DNA of 64,000 nt from Candidatus Omnitrophota bacterium (GTDB taxonomy: Bacteria; Omnitrophota; Gorgyraeia; Zapsychrales; Zapsychraceae): positions 83,998 to 147,997 of the forward strand of contig JAJDCA010000015.1 in assembly GCA_029261055.1 (NCBI GenBank), written 5' to 3'. Position 1 is the stretch's first letter. Each line of letters begins with the position of its first letter. A program made the position numbers and the translations under genes. The notes beneath the pieces are model-generated. The model did no database searches and was not told the DNA's origin. It saw only the letters and a program-made list of their open reading frames with translations. Shown in pieces: positions 17,446 to 60,723 of this stretch.

Positions 17446-17453
17446 TGAGACAC

Positions 17454-17708
17454 GAAATCGCTTTCGAGAAAAGATTAACGCATTCGGCTCAGAAGAGATC
17501 TCCTTCTGGTCGATCTCTAATTCGTCTCATGCCTCAATCTTTTCTCTACGCGATTACGGCGCTTAATTTATAAAGTATCGGTCAACCCGTCTTATCAAGA
17601 GGTTGTGTTAAAGCCTGCAGGCGAATTGGAGGCCGAGCAGAACGAGGTCTCCTCTGAGCCGGAAGGTTTTAACACAACCTCCAATAGACGGGTTGACTTG
17701 AAAGTGTC
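17454..17708. repeat. Structured GC-rich intergenic repeat, copy A (about 255 bp), with a long nested hairpin GTCAACCCGTCT...AGACGGGTTGAC
   Basis: It shares its 5' module (GAAATCGCTTTCGAG.AAAGATTAACGCATTCGGCTCAGA), a CGCGATTACG core, and the terminal hairpin plus the TTGAAAGT tail with copy B. Confidence 0.6.
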
Positions 17709-17736
17709 TTTTAATTTTGACGCTATGGTTTAAATT

Positions 17737-36779: not shown

Positions 36780-38378
36780 ATGATTAAAAAAGTTTTTTGG
36801 ATTTTTACAGCTATGGTGGGTATTGGCAGCGTTTTAGCTTATTTGTTTTTTCCTCCGCTTTTATGGCTACTGGTTATTTTTCTCCCCATAATTTTTCTTG
36901 GTCTGAAAGATATGACTCAAACCAGCCATACCATTTTGCGTAATTATCCTGTCCTGGGACATTTTCGTTATTTGTTAGAGGAGATTCGACCTGAAATTAA
37001 TCAATATTTTGTTGAATCCAATCATGATGGGCGGCCATTTGCCCGGGAAGATCGAACTTTAGTTTATCAACGGGCAAAAGGTGTTTTGGATACGTTACCG
37101 TTTGGAACACAGAAAAATGTTTATGAGCATGGATATGAATGGGTTAATCATTCCTGGAAACCTGTAGAGGTTGACCCAAAAGATTTGCGCGTCACGATTG
37201 GTGGTCCGGATTGCAAAAAGCCTTATAGTGCAAGCATTCTTAACATCAGTGCTATGAGTTATGGGGCGTTAAGTCAGCCGGCTATAATGGCCCTTAATCA
37301 AGGGGCCAAAATGGGGGGATTTGCGCACAATACAGGAGAAGGAAGTGTGAGTCCATATCATCAAAAGGGCGGCGATTTAATTTGGCAAATTGGGACAGGG
37401 TATTTTGGCTGCCGTACAGCGGACGGGAATTTTAATGAAGAAACTTTTGCAAAAAAAGCACAGCTGGATGAAATTAAAATGATTGAAATTAAAATTTCTC
37501 AAGGGGCTAAACCCGGGCATGGAGGGATTTTGCCAGCCGCAAAATTAACAGAAGAAATTGCTGAGATTCGCCATGTGCCAATGGGTGAAGACGTTATGTC
37601 ACCCCCAGCACATAAAGCATTCTCGACGCCGCTTGAATTTGTGGGTTTTATTAAGAAATTGCGCGATTTGTCCGGTGGAAAACCTGTTGGTTTTAAATTT
37701 TGTGTCGGGCGAAGGCGTGAGTTTCTCGCCGTGTGTAAAGCTATGTTAAAAACAGGCATTACGCCGGATTTTATTACGGTGGATGGGGGAGAAGGTGGGA
37801 CAGGTGCGGCCCCGTTAGAATATTCTAATAGTATAGGATGTCCTCTTATGGAGGGATTAATTTTTGTTCATAATTCTCTCGTCGGGAGTGGTTTGCGTGA
37901 CAAAATAAAGATTATAACAAGTTCTAAAGTCTCCACGGGATATGGCATTATTAAACGTCTTGCTGTCGGGGCTGATGTATGTTATTCCGCCCGGGCGATG
38001 ATGATGGCTTTGGGATGTATTCAAGCTTTAAAGTGCAATTCTAATAAATGCCCGACAGGTGTTGCAACGCAAGACTCAGCATTGGCAAAAGGTTTAGTTG
38101 TTGACGACAAAAATAAACGTGTTGCCAATTTTCATAAGGAGACAGTTGAGAGTGTCGCCGAAATGTTAGGTTCCATGGGGTTAGAACATACGAGTGAATT
38201 ACGGCCATGGCATGTTATGCGTCGAGTTAATCCAACAGAAACAAAACATTATGGAGAACTGTATAGATATTTAAAACCCGGCGTATTGTGTGGGGATGAT
38301 ATTCCAGCGCACTATAAAAGAGCCTGGGATTCGGCTTGTCCGACAAGTTTTGACCATGTTACTCTAATTAAGAAATAA
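36780..38378 (+). CDS. Membrane-anchored FMN-binding glutamate-synthase-family protein (GltB domain-2 homologue, PF01645-like)
   Basis: Two N-terminal TM helices followed by the GltS FMN domain (ITVDGGEGGTGAAPLEYSNSIGCP). Confidence 0.8.
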   Translation: MIKKVFWIFTAMVGIGSVLAYLFFPPLLWLLVIFLPIIFLGLKDMTQTSHTILRNYPVLGHFRYLLEEIRPEINQYFVESNHDGRPFAREDRTLVYQRAKGVLDTLPFGTQKNVYEHGYEWVNHSWKPVEVDPKDLRVTIGGPDCKKPYSASILNISAMSYGALSQPAIMALNQGAKMGGFAHNTGEGSVSPYHQKGGDLIWQIGTGYFGCRTADGNFNEETFAKKAQLDEIKMIEIKISQGAKPGHGGILPAAKLTEEIAEIRHVPMGEDVMSPPAHKAFSTPLEFVGFIKKLRDLSGGKPVGFKFCVGRRREFLAVCKAMLKTGITPDFITVDGGEGGTGAAPLEYSNSIGCPLMEGLIFVHNSLVGSGLRDKIKIITSSKVSTGYGIIKRLAVGADVCYSARAMMMALGCIQALKCNSNKCPTGVATQDSALAKGLVVDDKNKRVANFHKETVESVAEMLGSMGLEHTSELRPWHVMRRVNPTETKHYGELYRYLKPGVLCGDDIPAHYKRAWDSACPTSFDHVTLIKK

Positions 38379-38390
38379 AGGGGATTAATA

Positions 38391-40034
38391 ATGAAGGCAT
38401 CGGATTTATTTATTAAAGCATTAGAAAATGAAGGCGTTGAATATATTTTTGGAATTCCAGGTGAGGAGAACTTGGATTTTTTGAATTCATTAAAAGATTC
38501 AAAGATTAAACTTATTCTAACGCGGCATGAACAAGCCGCCGGTTTTATGGCCGCCACGTATGGACGGCTTACAGGAAAGGCCGGGGTTTGTCTTTCTACA
38601 TTAGGGCCGGGAGCAACCAATTTTGTGACGGCCGCAGCGTATGCCCAGCTTGGCGGGATGCCCATGCTGATGATAACGGGGCAAAAACCGATTAAGACAA
38701 GTAAACAAGGGCAGTTTCAGATAGTTGATATTGTGGACATGATGAAGCCGTTAACAAAATATACGAAGCAGATAGTCGATGGCGATAATATTCCTTCACG
38801 GGTTAGAGAAGCATTTCGGCTTGCACAAGAAGAGCGGCCGGGGGCTGTTCATTTAGAATTGCCTGAAGATATTGCAAAAGAAGATACGCAAGAATCATTA
38901 TTTGCTCGAAGCCTTGCGCGTCGACCTGTTGCCGAACAAAAAGCTGTCAGCAAAGCGATTGAGTTGATTGAACAAGCTAAAACGCCATTGCTTCTTATCG
39001 GCGCGGGGGCGAATCGGAAGTTGACATCCAAGATGCTTAAAAAATTTGTGGATACCTTTCAAATTCCGTTTGTGAGCACGCAAATGGGTAAAGGTGTGAT
39101 TGATGAACGGCATCCTTTACATTTAGGGAATGCATCACTGTCGGATAAAGATTTTGTTCATTGTGCGATTAATAAAGCTGATTTGATTATCAATGTTGGA
39201 CATGATGTTGTTGAGAAGCCTCCATTTTTTATGCAACACGGGGGTATAAAAGTTATTCATATTAATTTCTTAAGTGCATCTGTTGATCCGGTTTATTTTC
39301 CGCAAGTAGAAGTTATTGGTGATATCGCTAATAGTATTTGGCAGATTAAAGAAAAATTAACGAAACAAGAGCAATGGAATTTTTCTGATGTTTTAAAAAT
39401 TAAGCAAGAATTAGACGCACATTTGAAGATAGGTGTTGATGACAATAGATTTCCAGTTATTCCACAAAGATTCGTGGCCGAGGTGAGAAAAGCAATGCCT
39501 TCCGACGGAATCATTGCCCTGGACAATGGCGTTTATAAGATTTGGTTTGCGCGAAATTATATGGCGCACGAGCCTAATACTGTTTTGTTAGATAACGCAC
39601 TGGCCACCATGGGCGCAGGGTTGCCGTCTGCCATGGGCGCGAAGATTGTTCATCCCGATAGAAAGGTGATGGCGATTTGTGGCGATGGTGGTTTTATGAT
39701 GAATTCACAAGAATTAGAAACATCCGTTCGTTTGAAATTAAATATTGTGGTTCTTATTTTACGGGATAATGCTTATGGTATGATCAAATGGAAACAAACA
39801 GGAATGGGTTTTGAAAATTGGGGTTTGGATTATGGCAACCCTGATTTTGTTAAATATGCGGAAAGTTATGGAGCTAACGGACATCGTGTTAATGCCATTG
39901 AAGAGCTGGGTGCAATACTTGAAAAAAGTATTAATGAAGATGGTGTGCACCTTATAGAGGTTCCTGTTGATTATTCTGAAAATGAAAAAGTGTTAATTAA
40001 AGAGCTACATGGGCGAACATGCTCATCTGGATAG
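38391..40034 (+). CDS. Thiamine-diphosphate enzyme of the acetolactate synthase / pyruvate oxidase family
   Basis: N-terminal Pyr domain (GIPGEENLDFLNSL...GPGATN) and TPP-binding GDGGFMMNSQELET...N. Confidence 0.85.
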   Translation: MKASDLFIKALENEGVEYIFGIPGEENLDFLNSLKDSKIKLILTRHEQAAGFMAATYGRLTGKAGVCLSTLGPGATNFVTAAAYAQLGGMPMLMITGQKPIKTSKQGQFQIVDIVDMMKPLTKYTKQIVDGDNIPSRVREAFRLAQEERPGAVHLELPEDIAKEDTQESLFARSLARRPVAEQKAVSKAIELIEQAKTPLLLIGAGANRKLTSKMLKKFVDTFQIPFVSTQMGKGVIDERHPLHLGNASLSDKDFVHCAINKADLIINVGHDVVEKPPFFMQHGGIKVIHINFLSASVDPVYFPQVEVIGDIANSIWQIKEKLTKQEQWNFSDVLKIKQELDAHLKIGVDDNRFPVIPQRFVAEVRKAMPSDGIIALDNGVYKIWFARNYMAHEPNTVLLDNALATMGAGLPSAMGAKIVHPDRKVMAICGDGGFMMNSQELETSVRLKLNIVVLILRDNAYGMIKWKQTGMGFENWGLDYGNPDFVKYAESYGANGHRVNAIEELGAILEKSINEDGVHLIEVPVDYSENEKVLIKELHGRTCSSG

Positions 40035-40044
40035 GAGAAAGAAT

Positions 40045-41439
40045 ATGTCTGAAAAAATAAAAGTAACGTCACCCTATGATGGGCATTTGATTAAAGAGAT
40101 TGATCTGGATGATTGGGCAAAAGTTGATGGGATGTTGGCAACGGCTAAATCATTAGCCGATGACAGACGTCAATGTTTAATGATTCCTGAACGTATTAAA
40201 ATTTTAGAAAAGACGGCACAGTTAGTTGAAGATCGTCTAGAAAATTTTGCATTGCAAGCCGCTGAAGAAGGAGGGAAGCCGCTTATTGATTCTCGTGTGG
40301 AGTTAGTACGTGCGGTTAACGGTATTCAGGAAGCTGCGCGATCTCTTAATCATTTGGTGGGGCGTGAAATTCCGATGAATCTTAATGCCGCTTCACTGAA
40401 TCGCATGGCGTATACATTAAGAGAGCCGATAGGGGTTGTTATTGCCGTTAGTGCCTTTAACCATCCTTTTAATCTTATTGTGCATCAGGTTATTCCCGCT
40501 GTTGCAGTTGGTTGTCCGGTTATCGTTAAGCCAGCGGAGACAACCCCGATTTCATGTATCAATTTATTGAATTGTCTTTATGAAGCCGGCTTGCCTAAAG
40601 AATGGGCGCAAATGACGTTATGTAATTTAGAGAATGCAGAAAAATTGGTTACGGATTCTCGGGTGGCTTTTTTGACTTTTATCGGTTCGGCGAAGGTGGG
40701 TTGGATGTTACGGTCAAAAGTAAATCCCGGTGTGCGTTGTGTCCTGGAGCATGGTGGGGCGGCACCTGTTATTGTTGAACCGGATGCAGATATCGATGCG
40801 ATGTTGCCGCTTTTAACTAAAGGTGGATTTTATCATGCAGGTCAGGTTTGTGTTTCTGTTCAGAGAGTTTTTGTGCACGAGTCGATAGTGGATAAGGTTT
40901 CTAAGGGATTGGTTGAATTAGCCAAGAAATTAGTTGTTGGTGATCCTTCGGATACAAAAACAGAAATCGGTCCGCTTATTTTGGAACGCGAAGTTGACCG
41001 CGTTGATCAATGGGTGCAAGAGGCAAAGCAAGGTGGCGCTGAAATTCTAACCGGGGGTAAAAAACAAGGAACAACTTGTTATGAACCGACAATTATTTTG
41101 AATCCTCCCAAAGCCGCTAAAGTTTCTACCGAAGAAATTTTTGGACCTGTGGTATGTATTTATTCATACAAAGATCGCGATGAAGCGATTAAACAGGCGA
41201 ATGATGTTCCGTTTTCTTTTCAAGCGTCCGTGTTTACAAAAAATTTAGATGTGGCCTTAGATACCATGAAACGCTTGGAGGCCCTTACCGTCATGATCAA
41301 CGACCATACCGCTTTTCGTGTTGACTGGATGCCTTTTGGTGCCCGTAAGAAGTCAGGATTAGGTGTTGGCGGCATTGTTCCTACTATGGAAGAAATGACA
41401 GAAGAAAAAATGTTTGTGATAAAAACTGTTGAACAATAA
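40045..41439 (+). CDS. NAD(P)-dependent aldehyde dehydrogenase
   Basis: ALDH fold with the catalytic Cys region (GQVCVS) and Glu region (LEHGG). Start at 40045 after an AGGAGAAAG RBS (ORF track start 40009). Confidence 0.85.
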   Translation: MSEKIKVTSPYDGHLIKEIDLDDWAKVDGMLATAKSLADDRRQCLMIPERIKILEKTAQLVEDRLENFALQAAEEGGKPLIDSRVELVRAVNGIQEAARSLNHLVGREIPMNLNAASLNRMAYTLREPIGVVIAVSAFNHPFNLIVHQVIPAVAVGCPVIVKPAETTPISCINLLNCLYEAGLPKEWAQMTLCNLENAEKLVTDSRVAFLTFIGSAKVGWMLRSKVNPGVRCVLEHGGAAPVIVEPDADIDAMLPLLTKGGFYHAGQVCVSVQRVFVHESIVDKVSKGLVELAKKLVVGDPSDTKTEIGPLILEREVDRVDQWVQEAKQGGAEILTGGKKQGTTCYEPTIILNPPKAAKVSTEEIFGPVVCIYSYKDRDEAIKQANDVPFSFQASVFTKNLDVALDTMKRLEALTVMINDHTAFRVDWMPFGARKKSGLGVGGIVPTMEEMTEEKMFVIKTVEQ

Positions 41440-41688: not shown

Positions 41689-42509
41689 GAAAATATAATT
41701 TAATAATTTTAGCTGGTGGTGAGGATGAAGACTGGTGTCATCAGTACGGCTGTAAAAGAAAAGCTGAATTGCCGCTTTATGGTAAGCCGATGATTGATTT
41801 GGTTGTCGATGCTTTTCATAAAAGTTCATATATCGATCAAATTATAGTTGTTGGGCCTAAAGATCTTGATCAACTGAAATCAATGAAGCATGTTCATAAG
41901 CGGCTTAATGAAGGGAAGTCATTTATTCAAAATCTTCTTAAGGCCGTATATTACATTAAATCGTCGATTTACAAATTTTCTAATAATCATAATGGTTATC
42001 TTATTTCGTTTTGTGATGCAGCCCATCTCAATACAAAGATTATTAATGCAACTTTAGAAAATATGTCTCGGCATGATGCGGGGCTTGTTTTGCATTATGT
42101 AGAAAAAGAAACTATTTCTCAAAGTGGCTTTCCAATTGAAAATCGCACTTTTTTACCTATTGGCGGAAAAAAATATTCAGGTTCTAATATCTATTACGTA
42201 AAGAAAGCCCGGTCGCTGCTGAATGTGGTGTGGGATATTATTAATCTTCGGAAATTACGCAAAGAACCGAAAGAATTTTTAAAATATTTAGATTGTGAAG
42301 AGGGGGGTTGGCCAAAAATTGAAAAAGTTGTAGAACAACATATGCGAACAAAAGTTAAAGTTTTTGTGTCTCCTTTTGCAGAAATGGGTGTGGACGTCGA
42401 TAAACCAATTGATTATGAATTAGCCAAACTGCATACAGCCAAATCGCGCAAGAAGTTTTTAAAGCAGAATGAAGCATCCTCAAGTAACCTCATGCATAGT
42501 CAGAGATAA
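41685..42509 (+). CDS. MobA-like NTP-transferase family nucleotidyltransferase
   Basis: N-terminal LIILAGG nucleotide-binding motif. ATGA overlap with the glutaredoxin stop. Confidence 0.6.
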   Translation: MRKYNLIILAGGEDEDWCHQYGCKRKAELPLYGKPMIDLVVDAFHKSSYIDQIIVVGPKDLDQLKSMKHVHKRLNEGKSFIQNLLKAVYYIKSSIYKFSNNHNGYLISFCDAAHLNTKIINATLENMSRHDAGLVLHYVEKETISQSGFPIENRTFLPIGGKKYSGSNIYYVKKARSLLNVVWDIINLRKLRKEPKEFLKYLDCEEGGWPKIEKVVEQHMRTKVKVFVSPFAEMGVDVDKPIDYELAKLHTAKSRKKFLKQNEASSSNLMHSQR

Positions 42510-42652
42510 GTATCCTTTCCAAACCCTGTCCGGCAACCGTTATGTCAAACGATTCAACGGCTGGAATCAGCTAACAACTCTTTTGTATGCCCAAGTATTC
42601 CCCCATAATTACCTTTCTTGACAATAAACGAACGATCGTTTAATATCGCAAA

Positions 42653-43228
42653 ATGCGACAATCAGATGAAAATAAAAAAATAGCTATTGGAAAAGCGGCC
42701 ATTCAACTTATTAATTCGGTTGGGTTTGATGGTGCGTCTATATCAAAAATTGCAAAGGTTGCAAATGTTTCACCTGCGACTATCTATACATACTTTGAAA
42801 ACAAGGAAGATATGTTGCTTAAGCTTTATGTGATGGTTAAAAAAGAGCTTGCCATTGCTTTACTTCAGGGTTTAGACGAATCATTGGATATTAAAAAAGG
42901 TATACATTTGATGTTTGAAAGTTTAATTGCCTATTCTGAGAAAAACATTGAAAGTTTTGCGTTTAAAGAGCAATTTGCAAATTGTCCGCTTGTGGCAAAT
43001 GTTTGTGAAGATGAAGAGTTGAGAGCTGTCATTGAGCCGTTAAAATCGTTTATAGAAAAAGGCAAGAGGCAAAATATTCTTAAAGAGGTGTCGATTGAAT
43101 ATATTGGAGCATATCTTTTTCATCCAATTTCAACTCTTATTAAAAGAAAGTATGCCCACCAAGAAAAATTGACAGAAGAAGAAAAGAATCTTATGTTCGC
43201 AATGGGATGGGATGCTATTAGGAAATAA
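42653..43228 (+). CDS. TetR-family transcriptional regulator
   Basis: N-terminal HTH (ISKIAKVANVSPATIYTYF). Confidence 0.8.
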   Translation: MRQSDENKKIAIGKAAIQLINSVGFDGASISKIAKVANVSPATIYTYFENKEDMLLKLYVMVKKELAIALLQGLDESLDIKKGIHLMFESLIAYSEKNIESFAFKEQFANCPLVANVCEDEELRAVIEPLKSFIEKGKRQNILKEVSIEYIGAYLFHPISTLIKRKYAHQEKLTEEEKNLMFAMGWDAIRK

Positions 43229-43240
43229 AGGAGAATCATC

Positions 43241-44338
43241 ATGCAAAAAAATAAATTGATACATACCGTAACACTTTCCTTAACATTGATCGGTTTGTGT
43301 TTGTCAGCTATCGGATGTTCTAAAAAGGCTAAAGCGGAAGATCCTAAACCATCCGGGCCTATGTCTGTTAACGTGGTTGGTTTTAAAACACTTCAAAAAG
43401 ATTTATCCGACACTATTTTTGTTGTAGGAACGCTTGTAGCTAATGAATCGGTCAATATCACCAACGAGATTAACGGTATTATTCAAAGTATTAATTTTAA
43501 AGAAGGTCAAAAGGTTGAGAAAGGCGATGTTTTGTTTCAGATTGAAAAGAATAAACTGCAGGCCGGATATGACCAGGCTGTAGCGAATTTGAGGTTGGCG
43601 GAATCGACGGCTAAGCGTTATAAAAATTTGGTGCAGTCCAAGGCTGTATCTCAACAGGAATATGATGAGACGGTGGCAACTCTTGCCTCGAATCGGGCAG
43701 CAGTTCAATTGGCGAAAGAACAACTGGAAGACGCAACGATTATTGCCCCCTTTAGCGGAGTGATGGGTGAACGAATGATCAGCATAGGACAGTTTGTCTC
43801 ACCTGGAGCCCAGTTGAGTTCTTTGTACAATCAAGATCCGATTAAGGTTGCCTTTCATGTGCCGGAGAGGTATCTCGGTGATGTTGCTATCGGACAAATG
43901 ATCGAAATGAAAGTGGCTTCTTATAGTGACAAAACCTACAACGGGGATGTGTATTTTATTGATCCCAAGATTGATGAAACCACGCGTACAGTTTTGGTTA
44001 AAGCGTACGTCGATAACCCCACAGGTGAACTGCGCGAAGGCATGTTTGCCAATATTGAATTAATTGTAGAGATTCGTAAAGATGCTATTTTGATTCCGGA
44101 AACCGCGCTGATTGTCAAAGCTGATGAGGTGTTTGTTTATGTGGTCAAAGAAGATCAAACGGTTGAATTACGTTCAATTCAGACGGGGGCCCGAAATAAG
44201 GGAATGGTGGGTGTTCGTGAAGGATTAAGTAAAGAGGAAGTTGTTATTGTGGAGGGGTATCAAAAATTAGGACCGGGATCTCCGGTTAATGTACGCTTCG
44301 AAGATGTGACTGAGAAAAAACCTTATGAAATTATCTGA
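43241..44338 (+). CDS. RND efflux periplasmic adaptor (membrane fusion protein) lipoprotein
   Basis: Lipobox (AIGCS), biotinyl/lipoyl-like and beta-barrel MFP domains. It overlaps the RND start. Confidence 0.8.
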   Translation: MQKNKLIHTVTLSLTLIGLCLSAIGCSKKAKAEDPKPSGPMSVNVVGFKTLQKDLSDTIFVVGTLVANESVNITNEINGIIQSINFKEGQKVEKGDVLFQIEKNKLQAGYDQAVANLRLAESTAKRYKNLVQSKAVSQQEYDETVATLASNRAAVQLAKEQLEDATIIAPFSGVMGERMISIGQFVSPGAQLSSLYNQDPIKVAFHVPERYLGDVAIGQMIEMKVASYSDKTYNGDVYFIDPKIDETTRTVLVKAYVDNPTGELREGMFANIELIVEIRKDAILIPETALIVKADEVFVYVVKEDQTVELRSIQTGARNKGMVGVREGLSKEEVVIVEGYQKLGPGSPVNVRFEDVTEKKPYEII

Positions 44339-47300
44339 AATAAGTATTAAACGCCCTGTGTTAGCCACGATGATGAATTTGTTGTTGATTCTCTTTGGAG
44401 TGGTTGGCTTATCCCGTCTTCCGGTGCGTGAGCTGCCGGATATTGACCCACCGATTGTCAATGTGCAAACGGTTTATCCAGGGGCCAGTGCCCAGGTTAT
44501 TGAAACTCAGGTGACTGAACCGTTGGAAGATGCTTTAACCAGTGTCGAGGGGATCAAAAAAATTACGAGTGAAAACCGGGAACAATTAAGTTCTATCACG
44601 ATTGAATTTAATTTATCCGAGGATGTGAACGTGGCGGCTCAGGATGTGAGGGATCGTGTTGCAAGAGTACGCGGGCGTTTACCTGATGATATTGACGAAC
44701 CCATTGTGTCAAAGCAAGACGCCGACGCGAGCCCGTCGATTTGGGTGGCGTTGTTTAGTGAACGATTTTCTACGCTTGAGCTTACGACGATTGCAGAAAA
44801 TTTATTTAAGGATCGTTTACAAACCGTTCCCGGTGTGAGTTCTGTTATTCTCGGTGGATCCAAACGTTTTGCTATTCGTATTCGGCTTGATTCCAAAAAG
44901 ATGGCAGCGCGTGGCCTTAGTGTGCTTGATGTAGACCGTGCCTTAACTGAGCAAAGTGTTGAGCTTCCCAGTGGACGTATTGAAAGTCTGCAACGTGAGC
45001 TGTCCATTGAAACGCGCGGACAGCTCAAAAATCCTGACGAATATAATAATCTTGTTATCCGACGTGAGGGCGATGATCTAGTCAGGCTTAAAGATATCGG
45101 TTTTGCTGAAATCGGTGTGGAGGACGAACGGTCTATAGCGCGTTATAACGGCAAACCTGCCGTCGGGATTGGGGTTATTAAGCAGTCTAAGGCCAATATT
45201 ATTGATGTGGCCACAGCACTCAAAGTTGAGCTCGAACGTATCCAGCCCATGATTCCAGAGGGGATTAATTATAATATTCCTTATGACGAATCGATTTATA
45301 TTGAGAAGTCTATTAAGGAAGTTTGGATCACTCTTGCGATAGCGTTTATTTTGGTTATTGGGGTAATCTATATTTTTCTGCACAATGTTCGCTCCACATT
45401 GATTCCGAGTATTACGATTCCTATTTCTATTATTGCCACGTTCGGCATTTTATATTTTTTCGGATATTCTATTAATATTGTGACCATGCTCGCGTTTGTT
45501 TTGGCGATCGGACTTGTGGTAGATGATGCGATTGTTGTTCTGGAAAATATTCACCGGCATATTGAAGAGGGCTTATCGCCGTTTCAGGCATCTTTGCTCG
45601 GGATGAAGGAAATCGGATTTGCTGTTATTGCGACAACGGTTGCCCTTGTGGCTGTATTTCTTCCCATGGCGTTTCAGACAAGTGATACCGGACGGTTATT
45701 TATTGAATTTGCGGTTGCGATTTCATTCAGTGTGATTATTTCGACATTTGTCGCGTTAACTCTTGCGCCGATGATGTGTGCTCGGGTTTTAAAACCTCAT
45801 CATGAAAATCAACGCCAATCATTTCTTTTGAAATTTGAACAATGGTTGTACCGCCGGCGTAAAGGTTATTTAAAAATGTTGGGTTTTACGTTTCGTCATA
45901 TGAGCATTGTGTTTGGTATTTGTGTTTTAGCCGTGGCGGGCGCGTTTTATTTCTACTTAAATTTGGAAAGTGAGTTTCTTCCCGAGGAAGATAAAGGGCG
46001 ATTGTTTTGTATTGTCCTGGCGCCTGAGGGATCAACCAGTGAATATACGGATCGCATGGTGCGAAAGATGGAAGCTATTATACAATCGACACCGGAAGTT
46101 GACGGGTTTTTTACAGCCGTGGCTTTGGCGCGCGGCGGTCCGGGGCAGGCTGCGCAAGGATTATCCTTTATTCGGTTAAAAGAAAAGCGAGACCGTCATG
46201 TACGGGATATTGTCGGCGGACCGACGGGTTTTCGCTCACAGTTCTTTACAACCATTGAAGGTTCATTGGTGATCCCGATTATTCCCAAAGCCATCGGCGG
46301 TGGTTTTTCTCAACCTTATCAGCTTGTCCTTCAGCATCAGGATTTACATGAATTAAATCGTATTGCTGAAGAGTTTAGTAATACTTTGCGTCAGGAAGGG
46401 TTTCTTTTAAATGTGCGTTCTACATTTGAATTAAATAAACCTGAATTACGCGTGCACATTAACCGTAACCGTGCGGCGGTTCTTGGTGTTTCGGTTCAGG
46501 ACATATCACGTGTTTTACAAATTCTTTTCGGTGGATTGGATTTGGCTAAAGTAAATTTAGAGGGGAAGGAATATGATGTTATTGTTCAGTTGGAACGTGC
46601 ATCACGTTTATCTCCGTCGGATTTGGAAAAGATTTATATTCGCAATAATAATGGACAATTGATTCAGTTGAATAATGTCATTGATTATGAAACAGGAGGC
46701 GGGCCTAGTGCGATCAATCACTTCAATCGTCTGCGTTCAGCCACGATTGAGGCCACACCGTTGGATATTCCATTGGGGACGGCGATAGAACGGACTGAGA
46801 AATTATTAAAGGAAAGCAATATCCAAGGGCTTCGATATGAATGGAATGGGGAGGCTTTGGATTTAAAAGAGTCTGGAAGCGAAACGGTCTTTGTCATCCT
46901 GCTTGCGATTTTGATTATTTACATGGTTTTGGCGGCCCAGTTTGAAAGTTTAAAAGATCCACTGGTGATTATGTTTACTCTTCCACTTGCGGTCTTCGGG
47001 GCTTTGGGTTCCTTATGGTTGTTGGCGTATGTGGACCGTATGGCTGTTTCGGGCGTTAGCTTTTTACCGCGTATTCCGGCCATGGGCATCAATCTGTTCA
47101 GTCAGATTGGAATTATTATGCTGATCGGTATTATTACAAAAAATGGTATTCTTTTGGTGGATTTTGCCAATCAGGAAATGGCAAAAGGACAAGATGCGAT
47201 GCGCGCTATGTTGGGTGCGGGTAAGATGCGTTTTCGTCCGATTCTTATGACGGCGTTTTCAACCATAGCAGGGATTTTACCGATTGCCATTGGTTTTGGG

Positions 47301-48875
47301 GCCGGCGCTGAAAGTCGTCGTCCGTTAGGGGTTGCCGCCGTTGGAGGTATTGCTTTAGGCACATTTTTAACCCTGTTTGTTGTTCCCGTGGTGTATGTGT
47401 TATTGAATAGAACAAGGAAAGACAAGCTGCGATTAAAAAAACAGACAGTGGCAGCATTATCTGTCATTACAATTTTACCGATGCTATTGACCGGATGTTC
47501 CCCAATTTTAGGAGAAGACTATGTCCGTCCTGATGTAACCTTACCGGTGGATTGGGAATACCGGAGGGAGTATGAAAACTGGAAAGCCGCTACGCCCATA
47601 GATCATCATACTAAAGGACAATGGTGGGAAATTTTTGAAGATGATACACTCAACTATTTACAAAAACAAGCTTTAACGCATAACCATAATTTAAAAAGTG
47701 CCATGGCAAGCGTGCGTCAAGCGCGTGCGCTGGCTCGGATGGATAAGGCTGGGTTTTATCCAACGATTGAAAGTAATCCTGCGTTTGAACGTTCCCGTAC
47801 AACCAAAAACAGTTTTACTTCAACCTCGGCAGGTATAAGTAGTTTTACTTCCGAGCGTTATGAAATTCCGTTTGATTTTAGTTACGAATTGGATTTGTGG
47901 GGGCGTGTTCAACGGGCCTTTGAAGCAGGTGTGGCTCGCGCTGAAGGGACATTGGCGCAATATTACACCGTTATGTTGACGTTAAATGCAGATGTGGCAC
48001 GTCATTATTTTGACTTACGCGAGTTAGAGAAAGAAGTCAAAATTATTGATGAGACCATTAAACTCAGAGAGTATGCCGTTAATGTGGTCGACGAACGCGT
48101 CCAAGGAGGATTAACCAGCGAGTTGGATTTCAATCGCGCTAAAACCGAATTAGCCAAAGTCAAAACGGAACGTATTGATGTGCTGCGCCGCCGGCTGGAA
48201 ACTGAAAATGCATTAGCGGTGTTATGCGGTCAGCTTCCATCGGAATTCTCTTTGGATTTTACAGCCCCGATTATTGATGTTCCGGAAATTCCATTATATA
48301 TCCCATCGGAATTACTTGAGCGACGTCCGGATATTGCCGAAGCAGAACGTAAAGTAGAAGAAGCCAATGCCCAAATCGGTGTCGCTGAGGGGGCTATGTT
48401 TCCTAGAATCAGTTTAACGGCGACGGGAGGTCTTAAGAGCATTGAGATTGATTCGCTATGGGATTTGGAAAGCCGATTTTGGTCGTTAGGGCCGAACATA
48501 TCTATTCCTTTATTTACCGGTGGTAGAGGCAGGGCCAATGTGTGGGCTGTCGAAGCTAAATATGATCAAACGGTTGAAGATTACCGCCAAACAGTTTTAA
48601 CCGCTATTGAAGAAGTTGAAACATCTTTATCTAATGTAAAAATGTTTGGCCAGCAAGGAGTGTCCCAGGAGGAAGTCCTAAAATCGTCCCGCCAAACCGC
48701 AGAACTATCTATCTTTCGTTATAAAGAAGGATTGGTTACATTTTTGGAAGTTATTGATTCTGAGCGCTCCCGATTAGATGCGGAATTGCAAGCTGCACGG
48801 ATATTGAATCAACAGTTGATAGCGACAGTTCACCTGATTAAAGCCCTCGGAGGCAGCTGGAAGGCTAGTCATTAA
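44325..48875 (+). CDS. RND permease (AcrB-like, residues 1 to about 1035) in frame with a TolC/OprM-like outer membrane factor lipoprotein (residues about 1035-1516). No stop codon separates the two modules.
   Basis: One 1516-codon ORF. The AcrB-like 12-TM architecture ends at ...VVYVLLNRTRKDKLR. Then comes a complete lipoprotein signal (RLKKQTVAALSVITILPMLLTGC), followed by two OMF repeat halves. A possible internal start (CTG at 47427) sits 5 nt after AAGGAAAG. Confidence 0.75.
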   Translation: MKLSEISIKRPVLATMMNLLLILFGVVGLSRLPVRELPDIDPPIVNVQTVYPGASAQVIETQVTEPLEDALTSVEGIKKITSENREQLSSITIEFNLSEDVNVAAQDVRDRVARVRGRLPDDIDEPIVSKQDADASPSIWVALFSERFSTLELTTIAENLFKDRLQTVPGVSSVILGGSKRFAIRIRLDSKKMAARGLSVLDVDRALTEQSVELPSGRIESLQRELSIETRGQLKNPDEYNNLVIRREGDDLVRLKDIGFAEIGVEDERSIARYNGKPAVGIGVIKQSKANIIDVATALKVELERIQPMIPEGINYNIPYDESIYIEKSIKEVWITLAIAFILVIGVIYIFLHNVRSTLIPSITIPISIIATFGILYFFGYSINIVTMLAFVLAIGLVVDDAIVVLENIHRHIEEGLSPFQASLLGMKEIGFAVIATTVALVAVFLPMAFQTSDTGRLFIEFAVAISFSVIISTFVALTLAPMMCARVLKPHHENQRQSFLLKFEQWLYRRRKGYLKMLGFTFRHMSIVFGICVLAVAGAFYFYLNLESEFLPEEDKGRLFCIVLAPEGSTSEYTDRMVRKMEAIIQSTPEVDGFFTAVALARGGPGQAAQGLSFIRLKEKRDRHVRDIVGGPTGFRSQFFTTIEGSLVIPIIPKAIGGGFSQPYQLVLQHQDLHELNRIAEEFSNTLRQEGFLLNVRSTFELNKPELRVHINRNRAAVLGVSVQDISRVLQILFGGLDLAKVNLEGKEYDVIVQLERASRLSPSDLEKIYIRNNNGQLIQLNNVIDYETGGGPSAINHFNRLRSATIEATPLDIPLGTAIERTEKLLKESNIQGLRYEWNGEALDLKESGSETVFVILLAILIIYMVLAAQFESLKDPLVIMFTLPLAVFGALGSLWLLAYVDRMAVSGVSFLPRIPAMGINLFSQIGIIMLIGIITKNGILLVDFANQEMAKGQDAMRAMLGAGKMRFRPILMTAFSTIAGILPIAIGFGAGAESRRPLGVAAVGGIALGTFLTLFVVPVVYVLLNRTRKDKLRLKKQTVAALSVITILPMLLTGCSPILGEDYVRPDVTLPVDWEYRREYENWKAATPIDHHTKGQWWEIFEDDTLNYLQKQALTHNHNLKSAMASVRQARALARMDKAGFYPTIESNPAFERSRTTKNSFTSTSAGISSFTSERYEIPFDFSYELDLWGRVQRAFEAGVARAEGTLAQYYTVMLTLNADVARHYFDLRELEKEVKIIDETIKLREYAVNVVDERVQGGLTSELDFNRAKTELAKVKTERIDVLRRRLETENALAVLCGQLPSEFSLDFTAPIIDVPEIPLYIPSELLERRPDIAEAERKVEEANAQIGVAEGAMFPRISLTATGGLKSIEIDSLWDLESRFWSLGPNISIPLFTGGRGRANVWAVEAKYDQTVEDYRQTVLTAIEEVETSLSNVKMFGQQGVSQEEVLKSSRQTAELSIFRYKEGLVTFLEVIDSERSRLDAELQAARILNQQLIATVHLIKALGGSWKASH

Positions 48876-49093
48876 CGAGAACGGAGCAGATAACATTAGT
48901 AAAGATTAGCAAACAACAGTCGCATTCCATTCCATTTTTACAAAAAAAATTGTAAGATTTCCCTCTCAATCCCGACTAACCTCTTAATGGAACGCATAAA
49001 CAAGATCTTGTTAGTATCTACATGTTTTATGCAGGTTGCAGAATAATTATTAATATTTATAATATATAACTTTATTGTCATGAAGGAGTTATT

Positions 49094-49426
49094 TTGAAGA
49101 AAATTGTCTCCATATTCCACAAAGAAACGGGTGAGCTCATTGCGGAAGGTCCTCTTGGCTGGGGAATTATGCCTTTTGAAGGGAATTATTACATTCAAAA
49201 GAGGTATTTAAAAACAAAAGGATTTAAAAATACTTGGTTTCCCGGTCTGTGTATTTATAAATTTTTTTATGTTTGGTTAAATTTTCAAAGAAAAGATGGG
49301 GACGTGGATAAAATGCTTGGATGGCTTTATTTTTTACCGAACCCTTTGTTTCCGTTTATTTGGTTTAGGGTAGCTTTGCCGGGACATCATGAGGCATTAA
49401 GAATTGACGTTACAGAAATTATATAA
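49094..49426 (+). CDS. Hypothetical Trp/Phe-rich small protein (110 aa)
   Basis: ORF with a GGAG RBS. I recognise no domain. Confidence 0.4.
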   Translation: MKKIVSIFHKETGELIAEGPLGWGIMPFEGNYYIQKRYLKTKGFKNTWFPGLCIYKFFYVWLNFQRKDGDVDKMLGWLYFLPNPLFPFIWFRVALPGHHEALRIDVTEII

Positions 49427-49447
49427 ACCGTAAAAATAGGAGAAAAA

Positions 49448-50293
49448 ATGTCGCAGACTAAAGAAGTTCAATTTTCAGATTTAGATTTATCTTTATGGGA
49501 AGCCTCCCGGGATACCATTCATCAGTATGCTAAATTGTTAGGCAAAATTCGAGCCGCGTTAACCCCAAAACAAAAACATTGGTGGAATGTTAGTTTGCGC
49601 GCATCAGCGGTAGGATTTACGACCACACCGATTGCTATTTTTGATCAAAACAAATCCATTGAATTAGAGTTAAATTGTGTGAAACATAAAATTGTGATTA
49701 GTTCATCTAATGGGGAAAAGCAGTGTATTGATCTTGAAGGACAGTCGATTAAGAAAATGTATGAAAATGTTTTATCCATTTTGGCCGATATGAAGGTGCA
49801 ACCAAAACTTGATGAAAGCTTATTTTCAGGTGAGGAAAATTTGCAATATGATCGCACACGCATTGAATCATTTTGGAAATCTTTCGCCCAGATAGATCTT
49901 ATTTTTAAAGAATTTAAAGGCGGGTTACGACAAGAAACAAGTCCTGTCCAGTTATGGCCGCATCATTTTGATTTAGCATTTTTATGGTTTTCAGGTAATC
50001 TTGTACCCGATCAAGATCCAAATAATGAAGAGTATGCGGATGAACAAATGAATTTTGGTTTTTCAACGGGGGATGAAAGTATTAATGAGCCATATTTTTA
50101 TATTACAGCCTATCCCTTGCCGGAACTCCTCCCTAAAATTGCATTACCTCAAGGCGCTTATTGGGAGACAAAAGCATTTAATGGGGCGATTCTTAAATAC
50201 AAAGAACTAACCCAATCAACTAACCCACGAAATACGCTCATCAATTTTCTAAAAGCAGTACAGGATGCGGGTTCAGAGTTTATGTTAAAGTAA
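49448..50293 (+). CDS. Conserved hypothetical protein (281 aa)
   Basis: ORF with an AGGAGA RBS. It contains a LWPHHFDLA motif. Function unknown. Confidence 0.5.
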   Translation: MSQTKEVQFSDLDLSLWEASRDTIHQYAKLLGKIRAALTPKQKHWWNVSLRASAVGFTTTPIAIFDQNKSIELELNCVKHKIVISSSNGEKQCIDLEGQSIKKMYENVLSILADMKVQPKLDESLFSGEENLQYDRTRIESFWKSFAQIDLIFKEFKGGLRQETSPVQLWPHHFDLAFLWFSGNLVPDQDPNNEEYADEQMNFGFSTGDESINEPYFYITAYPLPELLPKIALPQGAYWETKAFNGAILKYKELTQSTNPRNTLINFLKAVQDAGSEFMLK

Positions 50294-50421: not shown

Positions 50422-52392
50422 ATGAGCAAAGACACTAAAAAGATAGTTTGGCATAAAGCTCTTGAAAAAGATGAGTTTCCTGAAGGTCGAGTAAAATCAA
50501 TTACTTTGGGGCATGTAACCGTGGCCCTTACGCATTTTGAGGGAAAGTATGGGGCGCTTAATAATAAATGTCCTCATCAAGGTGGGCCTTTGGGTGAAGG
50601 GTCGATTGAGAATGGTCTTTTGCGATGTCCGTGGCATGGATGGGATTTTTGTCCGCATAGTGGAAATACACCGGGATATGATGATGGTGTTGATGCTTAT
50701 GCCGTCGAGGTGCGAGATGATGGTATTTATGTCGGTCTTGAAGAAGAAGCGCCGCATGTGACAACTGTTTCAGATGTGATGACCGAAACTATGACCAACT
50801 GGGGCGTTAAGCATGTTTTTGGAATTGTTGGGCATTCAAATTTAGGGTTGGCGGATGGATTGCGTATGCAGGCAGAAAAAGGAAATTTGAAGTTTTATGG
50901 CGTTCGTCATGAACTAGCCGCTGCATTTGCGGTATCGGCTTATGGAAAGTTGACAGGTCGTCCTGCGGCATGTCTTTCCATTGCAGGGCCGGGGGCAACG
51001 AATTTATTAACGGGTTTATGGGATGCCAATGTGGATCGTTCACCAGCGATTGCCTTAACTGGGCAAGTGGATACGCAAGTTGTAGGGGCTGGAGCTTTTC
51101 AGGAAGTTGATTTACAAGGGGCATTTGGAACAGTAGCGCAATGGGCGCAACCGGTTTTGCATTCGAGTAAACATGCCGAGTTGATGAATTTAGCCTGCAA
51201 GAGTTCTATTTTGAACCGAGGTGTTTCACATTTGATTTTTCCTGATAATGTTCAGCATATGCCAGCCCCTGAGGGAGAAACGGCCGGAGGCCCAGAGGGA
51301 AGAATTACTTCCGTGGCTATTCGTCCGCCGAAAGAATCTGTTGATAAAGCGGTCGCCTTATTATCAAAATCTGAGCGTCCAACGATTATTGTCGGACATG
51401 GTGCACGGTTTAATATGCCGGCGATTATTCAATTGGCCGAGAGCTTGAATTGTCCGGTGTTAACGACGTTTAAAGGCAAGGGATTGATCCCGGATAGTCA
51501 TCCGTTGGGTTGTGGTGTTTTAGGTAGAAGTGGAACGCCAATTGCCAGTTATTTTATGAATGAATCAGATTGTCTGTTAGTCTTTGGTTCCAGTTTCAGT
51601 AATCATACAGGAATCACGGATCACAAACCAACCATTCAAGTAGATTTTGATGCCATGACTTTAGGCAAGTTTCACAAAATTGATGTACCTGTCTGGGGAG
51701 AAATTGGAGAAACTGTCGAAGTTTTGCAAAACGAATTAAAAGGTAAAACAAAGACCAAAGACCGTCGTGAGGAAATTTCTGCGCGTTGGACCATTTGGCG
51801 CAAAGAAAAGAAAAGCCGGGAAGATGATGATTCTGGTAAGGGGATTAATTCCGCATCCATTTTTTCTGCCTTATCGAGGCATGTTTCTAAAGAGGCTATC
51901 ATGGCCGTTGATGTAGGGAATAATACTTATTCTTTTGGTCGATATTTTGAATGTGAAAACCAAGCTGTATTAATGTCTGGATATCTTGGTTCAATCGGGT
52001 TTTCCTTGCCGGCTGCCATGGGTGCCTGGGCGGCCACGCAAGAAGAGGATGCTCGATTCAAAGGAAGGCCGGTTGTGTCGATTTCCGGAGATGGTGGATT
52101 TGGGCAATGCATGGCGGATGTATCCACCGCCGTAAAATACAAAATGAATATTACGCATATTTTACTCAATAATCATGAATTAGGAAAAATCAGCAAAGAG
52201 CAGCGTGCCGCCAAATGGGATGTCTGGCAAACGTCGCTGGTGAATCCAAATTTTTCCGAGTATGTTACCTCTTATGGGGCATTAGGTATTCGCGTTGAGA
52301 AAAAGGAAGATTTGGATGACGCCATAACAAAGGCCTTGAATCATGAAGGCTTTAGTTTAGTCGAAATCATGTCGGATGCTTTATTAATGTAG
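50422..52392 (+). CDS. Fusion of an N-terminal Rieske [2Fe-2S] domain with a thiamine-diphosphate enzyme of the pyruvate oxidase / acetolactate synthase family
   Basis: Rieske ligand boxes CPHQGG and CPWHGW in the first 110 aa. Then the TPP-enzyme Pyr domain (GPGATNLLTGLWDA) and the TPP-binding motif GDGGFGQCMADV...N. Confidence 0.8.
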   Translation: MSKDTKKIVWHKALEKDEFPEGRVKSITLGHVTVALTHFEGKYGALNNKCPHQGGPLGEGSIENGLLRCPWHGWDFCPHSGNTPGYDDGVDAYAVEVRDDGIYVGLEEEAPHVTTVSDVMTETMTNWGVKHVFGIVGHSNLGLADGLRMQAEKGNLKFYGVRHELAAAFAVSAYGKLTGRPAACLSIAGPGATNLLTGLWDANVDRSPAIALTGQVDTQVVGAGAFQEVDLQGAFGTVAQWAQPVLHSSKHAELMNLACKSSILNRGVSHLIFPDNVQHMPAPEGETAGGPEGRITSVAIRPPKESVDKAVALLSKSERPTIIVGHGARFNMPAIIQLAESLNCPVLTTFKGKGLIPDSHPLGCGVLGRSGTPIASYFMNESDCLLVFGSSFSNHTGITDHKPTIQVDFDAMTLGKFHKIDVPVWGEIGETVEVLQNELKGKTKTKDRREEISARWTIWRKEKKSREDDDSGKGINSASIFSALSRHVSKEAIMAVDVGNNTYSFGRYFECENQAVLMSGYLGSIGFSLPAAMGAWAATQEEDARFKGRPVVSISGDGGFGQCMADVSTAVKYKMNITHILLNNHELGKISKEQRAAKWDVWQTSLVNPNFSEYVTSYGALGIRVEKKEDLDDAITKALNHEGFSLVEIMSDALLM

Positions 52393-53173: not shown

Positions 53174-54784
53174 ATGAAAAAAATTAGTATTGCGAAATTT
53201 TCGGAGCTTGAAGATAAAAAACCGGCGTATGCTTTAGTCGCCAATGTTGATTTGGTCATTATTAAATATGATGACAATGTTTCTGTATTGTATGGACGGT
53301 GCGCCCATCGTGGGGCTTTGATGTCGGATGGAACAATTCAGGGTAATGATATTATTTGTGGTGTGCATGGATGGGATTACAAGTTTGATACAGGGGTGAG
53401 TGCGTACAATAATGAAGAGAAGCTTCCGAAATTTAATGCCTGGATTGAAAATGGTGATGTACTTGTGGATGAAGATGAAATTGCGGCTTGGGAAGAAAAG
53501 AATCCACAGGCTTACAATCGTGATGCCTATCAAGGGCTTTACAAAGATTTACACGGCGGGCCAGAAGAGCCGCATTACAAATTTATTCAGCAATTAGCCA
53601 AAGATGGATTGTCTAAGTTTGGTCATCATGGTCCGGCCTCGGCCATGGGGGTAGCTCGTCAAGAGTTGCCGCAATGGGATGATATTCAATTTTTGACGGC
53701 GCAGTTAGCTACCTTACCACAGCTGGATGATGTTGCAGTAGGATCTGAGATTGTTATTGGTCCTAAGGCGAAAAAGCCGTTAACATTGAAGATTCCATTG
53801 TTTGTTTCCGATATGAGTTTTGGAGCTTTATCTGAAGAGGCCAAGATAGCTTTAGCTAAAGGGGCTGAGATAGCCGGCACAGGTATTTGCAGTGGAGAAG
53901 GGGGGATGCTTCCCGAGGAACAAGCTGCCAATGCGCGTTATTTTTATGAATTAGCCTCAGGCCGGTTTGGGTATTCTATTGATAAAGTCAAAAAATGTCA
54001 GGCCTTTCATTTTAAAGGAGGGCAAGGAGCTAAGACGGGAACCGGCGGACATTTGCCAGGTTCAAAAGTGAAGGGAAAAATCGCCAAAGTTAGAGGGCTG
54101 AATGAAGGCGAAGCGGCTATTTCACCGCCACGGTTTCCTGACTGGGATGATATCAAATATCTTAAAGAGTTTGCCGTTATGATCAAAGAAGAAACCGGCG
54201 GTATTCCAGTAGGTTACAAATTGTCCGCACAGCATATTGAGAAAGATATTGATGCCGCATTGGATATCGGCTGTGATTACATTATTCTTGATGGTCGCGG
54301 TGGTGGGACAGGCGCCGCGCCATTGATTTTCCGCGACAATATTTCTGTACCGACCATTCCTGCTTTAGCCCGGGCCAGAAAACATTTAGACAAAACGGAT
54401 AAAAATGTTACCCTAATCATCACCGGAGGCTTGCGTGTTCCGGCTGATTTTGCCAAGGCATTAGCGTTAGGAGCGGATGCGATCGCGGTATCCAATTCGG
54501 CTATTCAAGCGATTGGATGTTTAGGGATGCGGGCGTGTCACACGAATAATTGTCCTGTGGGTATTGCGACACAAAAAGAAGATTTAAGAAAACGGATTAT
54601 GATTGACGAGTCAGCCAAACGGTTGGCTAATTTTTTTAATGCGTCCGTTGATTTAATGAAAGTTTTAGCCCGAGCCTGTGGGTATACCGATTTTAATCAG
54701 TTTAATAGTGAAAACTTGACAACGTTTAAAAGGGATATGGCTTATCTGACAGGGGTTAATTACGGTGGGGTTGTTTCTGTCTAA
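53174..54784 (+). CDS. Fusion of an N-terminal Rieske [2Fe-2S] domain with an FMN-binding glutamate-synthase-family (GltB domain-2-like) domain
   Basis: Rieske boxes CAHRGA and CGVHGW. GltS domain: ILDGRGGGTGAAPLIFRDNISVPT and a C-terminal Cys cluster (CHTNNCPVGIATQ). Confidence 0.8.
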   Translation: MKKISIAKFSELEDKKPAYALVANVDLVIIKYDDNVSVLYGRCAHRGALMSDGTIQGNDIICGVHGWDYKFDTGVSAYNNEEKLPKFNAWIENGDVLVDEDEIAAWEEKNPQAYNRDAYQGLYKDLHGGPEEPHYKFIQQLAKDGLSKFGHHGPASAMGVARQELPQWDDIQFLTAQLATLPQLDDVAVGSEIVIGPKAKKPLTLKIPLFVSDMSFGALSEEAKIALAKGAEIAGTGICSGEGGMLPEEQAANARYFYELASGRFGYSIDKVKKCQAFHFKGGQGAKTGTGGHLPGSKVKGKIAKVRGLNEGEAAISPPRFPDWDDIKYLKEFAVMIKEETGGIPVGYKLSAQHIEKDIDAALDIGCDYIILDGRGGGTGAAPLIFRDNISVPTIPALARARKHLDKTDKNVTLIITGGLRVPADFAKALALGADAIAVSNSAIQAIGCLGMRACHTNNCPVGIATQKEDLRKRIMIDESAKRLANFFNASVDLMKVLARACGYTDFNQFNSENLTTFKRDMAYLTGVNYGGVVSV

Positions 54785-54794
54785 AGGAGGAGGT

Positions 54795-60454: not shown

Positions 60455-60647
60455 TCTGTTTTAAAAATCCATTGATTCCGCTTAGAGGGTGTGTTATGAT
60501 TTTGCCGATTTTTAAGAGACACCCCGGACCATCCTACTTCGCTCCAAAATTTTCGTCCTTCAGCTCGCTTCGCTCGCTTAGGACTTCATTTGGGAGCTTC
60601 GTAGGATTGGCCCAAAATTTTTCTAAATAAAATAATATTGTCATTTT

Positions 60648-60720
60648 GGGCCATTAGCTCATCTGGTAGAGCAGCTGACTCTTAATCAGCGGGCGGTAGG
60701 TTCGAGTCCTGCATGGCCCA
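60648..60720 (+). tRNA. tRNA-Lys (anticodon CTT)
   Basis: 73-nt cloverleaf folded by hand. Acceptor GGGCCAT/ATGGCCC, D-stem GCTC/GAGC, anticodon stem GCTGA/TCAGC with loop CTCTTAA, T-stem GTAGG/CCTGC with loop TTCGAGT, discriminator A. No encoded CCA. Confidence 0.85.
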
Positions 60721-60723
60721 TTA

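Follow-up and report, generated by a model that had tools for sequence, protein, structure and literature searches.

Tripartite efflux pumps such as MexAB-OprM, MexEF-OprN and CusCBA are built from a periplasmic adaptor (membrane fusion protein, MFP), a resistance-nodulation-division (RND) permease and an outer membrane factor (OMF) of the NodT/OprM type that carries an N-terminal Cys. Their genes lie in this order behind a repressor gene. In the AcrB and MexB structures, the C-terminus of the permease, after the twelfth transmembrane helix (TM12), is cytoplasmic; in solved tripartite pumps (AcrAB-TolC and MexAB-OprM), the N-terminus of the OMF sits at the outer membrane/equatorial domain, >100 Å from the inner membrane. 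Here we analyzed a stretch of 64,000 nucleotides from a Candidatus Omnitrophota bacterium (assembly GCA_029261055.1, contig JAJDCA010000015.1, positions 83,998 to 147,997 of the forward strand), hereafter the window, to which all coordinates below refer. It holds an operon with the same three components in the same order behind a regulator gene, and the OMF has its Cys at the equivalent position. Compared with canonical operons, however, the permease gene has no stop codon and the OMF no start codon, and the signal peptide of the OMF is internal to a 1516-aa precursor. Close unfused relatives in Omnitrophota share the canonical layout. Weighing the evidence below, we give a probability of roughly three in four to the reading that the product is a polyprotein precursor, from which processing at the internal signal peptide releases a normal outer-membrane lipoprotein.

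The closest mechanistic precedent would be FbcH, the cytochrome b-c1 polyprotein of Bradyrhizobium japonicum, which Thöny-Meyer and Hennecke reportedly described in about 1989-1991 and which is said to be cut at an internal signal peptide into two mature subunits. There too, an inner-membrane protein that spans the membrane several times and ends in the cytoplasm is said to be fused to a partner from its own complex that faces the periplasm. FbcH reportedly has a signal peptidase I (SPase I)-type site and both of its products stay in the inner membrane, whereas the gene in the window has a lipobox and its product would go to the outer membrane. With ordinary lipoprotein precursors handled by Lgt, LspA and Lnt, the junction shares a positive n-region, a short h-region, an L-(S/T/N/A)-G-C lipobox and the lack of Asp after the Cys; unlike in those precursors, the signal is preceded by ~1027 residues and 12 transmembrane (TM) helices.

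Partners of the RND superfamily can be joined in one chain, as in the fused SecD-SecF of Thermus (PMC8277102) and in engineered AcrA-AcrB fusions; these partners share a membrane or compartment and are not cleaved, and none of these fusions joins an inner- to an outer-membrane protein. A large review of tripartite pumps mentions only SecDF, peptidase and nucleotide-binding domain (NBD) fusions. Our literature searches found nothing relevant on natural RND-OMF fusions, Omnitrophota efflux, internal signal peptides or lipoboxes, polyproteins of this kind or LspA cutting after a 12-TM protein.

Two modules and an internal signal peptide in one reading frame

The open reading frame (ORF) at 44325..48875 (+ strand) starts with ATG and is 1516 codons long, and its translation contains no internal stops. 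The RND permease module occupies aa 1-1027 (44325..47405, +) and ends with TM12 (…FVVPVVYVLL). PF00873 (ACR_tran), a profile of 12 TM helices and two large periplasmic loops, spans aa 4-1027, covering model positions 2-1020 of 1021 (E=1.5e-287; 957 bits against a cutoff of 28). In AcrB, the proton relay consists of D407/D408 in TM4, K940 in TM10 and R971 in TM11; by motif recognition, we equated these with D400/D401 (GLVVDDAI), K939 (TKNG) and R971 of the window protein, all of which are invariant among 69 fused homologs. The NCBIfam cutoffs for multidrug RND permeases were not reached (NF033617, 1009 versus 1250 bits; TIGR00915, 796 versus 940 bits). The module is therefore a divergent member of the RND permeases, and since it falls below the curated cutoffs, it is given no substrate class.

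The C-terminal module shows clear OMF homology: Pfam OEP matched twice (E=1.3e-47), and TIGR01845 (outer_NodT) spans aa 1051-1510, or model positions 3-459 of 460 (374 bits against a cutoff of 210), with the start of the match falling within the signal-peptide region. Because ACR_tran and TIGR01845 match over nearly their whole models, both modules are complete, and chance could hardly produce an open frame of 1516 codons that matches two domains over their full length. The initial annotation, made from the letters and ORFs of the window, had described an uninterrupted frame joining a complete AcrB-like module to a complete OprM/TolC-like module through a full lipoprotein signal peptide with a lipobox, and had called this unusual for an MFP-RND-OMF operon. 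All of this is borne out.

At the junction, the protein reads VVPVVYVLLNRTRKDKLRLKKQTVAALSVITILPMLLTGCSPILGEDYVRP. Directly after TM12, a cytoplasmic linker at aa 1028-1040 (NRTRKDKLRLKKQ; 47406..47444, +), with six K/R and one D, would form the n-region of the signal peptide. It is followed by a 14-residue hydrophobic h-region at aa 1041-1054 (TVAALSVITILPML; 47445..47486, +), which is predicted to be a 13th TM helix in the N-in/C-out orientation, and by the lipobox L-T-G-C at aa 1055-1058 (47487..47498, +), the proposed site of Lgt acylation and of an LspA cut between G1057 and C1058. The codon of the lipobox Cys is TGT at 47496-47498 (codon 1058), and the whole internal signal peptide comprises 31 residues (aa 1028-1058). 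A positive n-region, an uncharged h-region of 7-22 residues and a [LVI..][ASTVI..][GAS]C lipobox are the features of a signal peptidase II (SPase II) substrate, and the window protein shows all three; the rule that the Cys lies within ~40 residues of the N-terminus is broken, as the Cys is residue 1058. The same FLTGC lipobox occurs N-terminally in an ordinary lipoprotein elsewhere in the window (19358-19969).

We then aligned the junctions of the 69 fused homologs of the Omnitrophota type. C1058 was invariant, G1057 (position -1) was kept in 68 of the 69, position -3 was L, F or A in 55, and an Asp directly after the Cys was found in none. The n-region varied from 10 to 23 aa, with a median of five K/R against zero D/E, and the uncharged stretch ahead of the Cys from 13 to 23 aa (median 16). 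The mean frequency of the majority residue was only 0.33 in the linker, compared with 0.86 in the TM12 region and 0.74 in the four lipobox columns. Since the Cys, the Gly and the charges are kept while the linker sequence drifts, this pattern points to selection for a generic signal peptide and not for a specific structural helix. A strict PROSITE-like lipoprotein pattern was matched by 59 of the 69 junctions. Only ~7 residues separate C1058 from the conserved DY.RP motif of the OMF.

Comparison with known OMFs places the start of the channel at the same Cys. The OMF part matched OprJ-like, OprM, OprN and CusC sequences in the PDB (E=1e-57 to 1e-46); residue 5 of OprM aligns with E1064, so that the mature, acylated Cys1 of OprM falls within two residues of C1058. 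We also built an AlphaFold2 (AF2) model of aa 985-1516 from a 46-sequence alignment (mean pLDDT 81). In this model, a helix at aa 1001-1033 (TM12) is followed by a four-residue turn, a second helix at aa 1038-1055 that stops three residues ahead of C1058, a coil and then the OMF fold. The best Foldseek matches were OprN, OprJ, CusC, CmeC and OprM (E ~1e-28 to 1e-25), with a target-normalised TM-score of ~0.8 against OprN, OprJ, CusC and OprM. The C-terminal module is predicted to have the OMF fold, with its duplicated alpha-barrel and beta-barrel repeat. Judged from TIGR01845, the PDB matches and the AF2 model, the mature NodT/OprM-type OMF would extend over aa 1058-1516 (CSPILGEDYVRP… to …ALGGSWKASH; 47496..48872, +), and the OMF is complete and appears to begin at the lipobox Cys.

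Fused and unfused relatives

In a search of 5.8 billion proteins, which included the window's own protein, we found at least 80 other distinct fused homologs, ~1490-1560 aa long, with 47-79% identity, 98-100% query cover and both domains. They stem from NCBI, JGI, ENA and Logan assemblies, and the named ones are nearly all from Candidatus Omnitrophica/Omnitrophota metagenome-assembled genomes (MAGs). The fused homolog P0007, which shares 74% identity with the window protein, was listed in 42 index blocks and recurred without any change in sequence on at least 24 contigs that had been assembled independently; P0115, from a second fused family, occurred on 12 contigs, and the largest contig of its cluster is 4.39 Mb long. 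In all fused loci that we examined (L082 and L164-L169), the operon consists of a MarR regulator, an MFP and the RND::OMF fusion. The comparison of orthologous loci, which had been proposed as a check, found the same fused architecture in many relatives, and homologs from so many independent sources rule out the point error in the assembly that the initial annotation had offered as one explanation. The database labels of the fused proteins are "RND permease" for some and "outer membrane subunit" for others, while JGI uses a double name.

The second fused family (P0104-P0118) is 47-49% identical to the window protein. It has no Cys at the junction but a hydrophobic stretch with AXA-type sites, for example ASA/E, ARA/E and AQA/A (the slash marks the putative cut), and it lies in MarR-MFP-fusion operons (L169:2501-7081 and L170:1595-6175). 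Among its unfused relatives with a name, the nearest comes from a Lentisphaerae MAG, and this family would be a closer analogue of FbcH than the lipobox family is. More distant relatives came from an exhaustive phmmer search with aa 317-1516 as the query against 1.84 billion representatives at 50% identity: among the best 150 matches were 26 further fused representatives (P0139-P0277; 1372-1557 aa, 28-44% identical), each with a hydrophobic stretch, followed in 17 by a lipobox Cys and in nine by an AXA-like SPase I site. This distant set suggests an origin of the architecture in several lineages beyond Omnitrophota. Because a lipobox or an AXA site was found in all fused families sampled, every fused lineage appears to retain a cleavable signal of the type suited to its own OMF. 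Some lipoboxes of the distant set have Ser before the Cys (MTSC, LTSC and FGSC).

Two further scans gave a different sampling. A library scan of genome contigs with the full fused alignment returned, among the listed matches, four loci matching both modules, all unfused; no Omnitrophota were among those matches, and generic RND patterns dominated. A scan of metagenomes with the alignment of the OMF C-terminal part found fused relatives at 6-7 of the 80 listed loci. At one locus (L091:~560-1900), the junction is fused as in the window and the OMF frame is interrupted further on, which may reflect a pseudogene or a sequencing error. We also considered L140:1844-5752, where a frame of 1303 codons without a stop ends in an OMF, and rejected it as an RND fusion, since its first ~800 aa have no Pfam match; this part may represent an extended N-terminus or a non-coding open frame in a GC-rich contig.

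Unfused relatives are close at hand. The closest RND relative (P0046 at locus L001, from an Omnitrophica MAG) is 83% identical in the RND part and unfused: its permease ends in …VLLNKRKRKNK and a stop, and a 17-nt gap is followed by the ATG of a separate OMF with the N-terminus MKSILMSFMVFLFLTGCALVGDDYTRP. After this ATG, the separate OMF carries MKSILMSFMVFLFLTGC, and it is 69% identical to the OMF part of the window protein. In other unfused relatives, the two genes share ATGA stop/start overlaps (L093, ~456-504; L096, ~2114-2165), or they lie in the same frame, split by one stop and two codons (L003:4680-4900, Verrucomicrobiia) or by a single stop (L071:6950-7170). The fused and unfused states are one mutation apart, either the loss of a stop or a 1-nt frame change at ATGA.

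In a rough neighbor-joining (NJ) tree of the RND parts only, the unfused P0046 and P0074 were nested in the large fused clade, and sporadic fused members (P0029, P0030, P0039 and P0064) stood among unfused ones; the linker of the fused P0039 still shows the Met-Arg-Arg start of an OMF. On this tree, fusion and fission occur repeatedly and the two states interconvert, which is easiest to understand if both yield the same mature proteins. The unfused permeases have hydrophilic C-terminal tails and no 13th helix. We also considered whether the long unfused RND proteins (1085-1092 aa) retain a remnant of such a helix, and rejected this, as their tails are hydrophilic.

Processing of the fused product

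We propose the following route. The 12 helices of the permease would enter the membrane during translation, and its C-terminus would stay in the cytoplasm. The next 31 residues, comprising the n-region, the ~14-residue h-region and LTGC, would insert as a 13th helix, and the ~460-residue OMF domain would be threaded into the periplasm. Because the RND C-terminus is cytoplasmic, the positive n-region and the h-region should insert N-in/C-out and present the Cys at the periplasmic face. We derive this topology from homologous RND permeases whose topology is known and from the positive charge of the linker, and it is the orientation that a signal peptide requires; the internal lipobox, which had been regarded as topologically awkward, is on this basis well placed. 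Lgt would then add diacylglycerol to Cys1058, and LspA (SPase II) would cut between G1057 and C1058. The released OMF, with its acylated Cys as the first residue, would be N-acylated, sorted to the outer membrane and folded into a trimeric channel, and the permease would keep the former signal peptide as an extra C-terminal helix, which canonical permeases do not have. The mature pump would be an ordinary MFP-RND-OMF tripartite assembly. The fusion would supply RND and OMF at 1:1, as in the 3:6:3 complex, sparing the OMF an initiation of its own, and would possibly co-target them; it may equally be a near-neutral and easily reached state that persists because processing makes it harmless. We infer the membrane topology from RND structures, and likewise the cleavage, the enzymes and the benefit in stoichiometry.

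A post-translational cut at an internal lipobox was not among the readings of the initial annotation, whose account of the junction fares well for the frame, the modules, the signal peptide and their unusual arrangement, and poorly for an assembly error, an internal start and an awkward topology. An internal start would mean that the OMF is made from a codon inside the ORF, with the full-length product as a by-product. The DNA details cited for it are all in place: CTG at 47427-47429 (codon 1035), GTG at 47448-47450 (codon 1042) and, five nt ahead of the CTG, AAGGAAAG at 47414-47421; we add TTG at codon 1027, with a weak GGTG upstream. CTG, however, is a very rare start codon in bacteria, and AAGGAAAG lies in an Arg/Lys-rich coding stretch (AGG AAA GAC AAG) and is probably a by-product of that coding. 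The GTG at 47448 has no Shine-Dalgarno (SD)-like motif and would yield a signal peptide without K/R. A missing SD is only weak evidence, since about half of real starts lack such a motif: as a control, SD-like motifs preceded 19 of the 37 real starts in the window, compared with 18% of random positions. The absence of start codons is the stronger point. In the DNA of 13 fused loci, we found no conserved ATG, GTG or TTG between TM12 and the lipobox; two loci (L082, which encodes P0007, and L168, which encodes P0030) have none of the three anywhere in the linker; and an ATG upstream of the n-region was found in 0 of the 13. Most GTG and TTG candidates lie inside the h-region and would give signal peptides of 8-15 residues in total and no K/R. 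Ribosomes arriving from the RND part would run through in any case, and the fused product would still need to be handled. We consider internal initiation improbable. A promoter and terminator scan of 42400-49500 found no excess and nothing specific near the junction, and a programmed frameshift or read-through was rejected because there is neither a stop nor a change of frame there.

It is similarly improbable, in our judgement, that permease and channel remain one stable chain, possibly lipid-modified at the internal Cys and tethered through the 13th helix, although the ORF is uninterrupted and conserved and AF2 pairs the internal helix with TM12. Such a chain would contribute to both membranes of a diderm envelope; in a milder variant, cleavage would be regulated and the release of the channel would be a checkpoint in pump assembly. 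This leaves unexplained the invariant Cys, the G-1/L-3 lipobox and the parallel AXA sites. The helix sequence is unconserved next to the RND helices, and for a helix that stays in the membrane, an uncharged stretch with a median of 16 residues is short. The ~7 residues from the Cys to DY.RP would have to bridge the >100 Å span of solved pumps, which makes an uncleaved tether geometrically implausible. OMFs of the CusC class are also said to need an acylated N-terminal Cys for insertion, reportedly from the CusC mutant entries 4k34 and 4k7k, and the alternation of fused and unfused states in close relatives implies that both give the same mature products. That an error or a recent mutation simply removed the stop between two normal genes is far less likely still, and we regard an artefact or a decaying gene as effectively refuted. 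A single mutation does separate the two states, and some fused entries look recent (the Met-Arg-Arg of P0039 and the interrupted OMF of L091), but the fused state is common to a clade that has diverged to ~50% identity, dozens of independent assemblies contain identical fused proteins, and full-length profile matches are kept in both modules, with invariant RND motif residues.

Several points weigh against processing at the internal lipobox. Ten of the 69 lipoboxes have Asn at position -2 (L-N-G-C) and fall outside the strict pattern, from which they deviate in this residue only, and the pLDDT of the two linker helices in the AF2 model is moderate (~59-72). For every member, cleavage is read from conserved cleavage motifs. 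The match list from the protein search was ranked by score and over-represents fused proteins, so it gives no true ratio of fused to unfused. No lgt, lspA, lnt or lol genes were seen within the 64-kb window, and we are not aware of any documented example in which LspA cuts at a lipobox after a 12-TM protein. We also assume that LspA can sterically reach a helix tethered to the RND trimer by a loop of 10-23 residues. As supporting context, ordinary lipoproteins of the window use similar lipoboxes (FLTGC in the gene starting at 19358 and AIGC in the MFP).

Genomic setting and implications

The first gene of the operon encodes a TetR-family regulator (42653..43228, +; Pfam TetR_N, E=2.1e-13, and TetR C-terminal domains), whereas every related locus that we examined (L082, L164-L169 and the unfused L001) has a MarR regulator in this slot. 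Next comes the gene of the periplasmic adaptor (43241..44338, +; Pfam HlyD_D23, E=6.2e-35, and HlyD_3); the adaptor is a lipoprotein in its own right, with an N-terminal lipobox (…LSAIGC), and its gene shares 14 nt with the start of the RND gene. Further upstream, at 16318-19969 (+), lies a cluster for Mla-type lipid transport, consisting of a STAS-MlaE fusion, an ABC ATPase, an MlaD protein and a 203-aa lipoprotein (MKKIFLYCMLFANFVFLTGC); we took these genes as a marker of a diderm envelope.

Other multidomain genes were seen in the window. A 1131-aa ORF at 3231-6626 (+) combines MFS_1, Acyltransferase and AMP-binding domains and looks like a three-way fusion of the LplT-Aas type (lysophospholipid transporter, acyltransferase and acyl-ACP synthetase). 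Two unusual fusions join a Rieske [2Fe-2S] domain to a full TPP enzyme (N, M and C domains) at 50422-52392 (+) and a Rieske domain to a Glu_synthase/FMN-dehydrogenase domain at 53174-54784 (+); unfused, paralog-like genes for a Glu_synthase (36780-38378), a TPP enzyme (38391-40034) and an aldehyde dehydrogenase (40009-41439) lie nearby. At 54765-57025 (+), an EgtB-like gene (DinB_2 and FGE-sulfatase) precedes an EgtD-like gene (Methyltransf_33), and the pair looks like one for ergothioneine biosynthesis. An 872-aa ORF at 18-2636 has no Pfam match. There are 45 ORFs with 150 aa or more, 43 of them on the + strand, and the window contains one tRNA-Lys(CTT) (60647-60721).

In function, the encoded pump is an ordinary MFP-RND-OMF system laid out like MexAB-OprM. 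Should the polyprotein model be true, this would be, to our knowledge, the first natural outer-membrane protein made as the C-terminal part of an inner-membrane transporter, and the first case of SPase II acting on a lipobox ~1000 residues and 12 TM helices into a precursor, which would widen the range of substrates for Lgt and LspA. Under the model, the RND permease would carry one more helix at its C-terminus, and the fused pump offers a natural system for the effects of RND:OMF stoichiometry and co-localisation on assembly. Pattern rules that want the Cys within the first ~35-40 residues would probably miss the fused lipoprotein, and this would in turn distort counts of efflux components in Omnitrophota and in other lineages. 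Overall, because the fusion exists in lipobox and AXA versions, occurs in at least 26 distant lineages and has been gained and lost repeatedly, we conclude that it is a general, overlooked solution and not a one-off.

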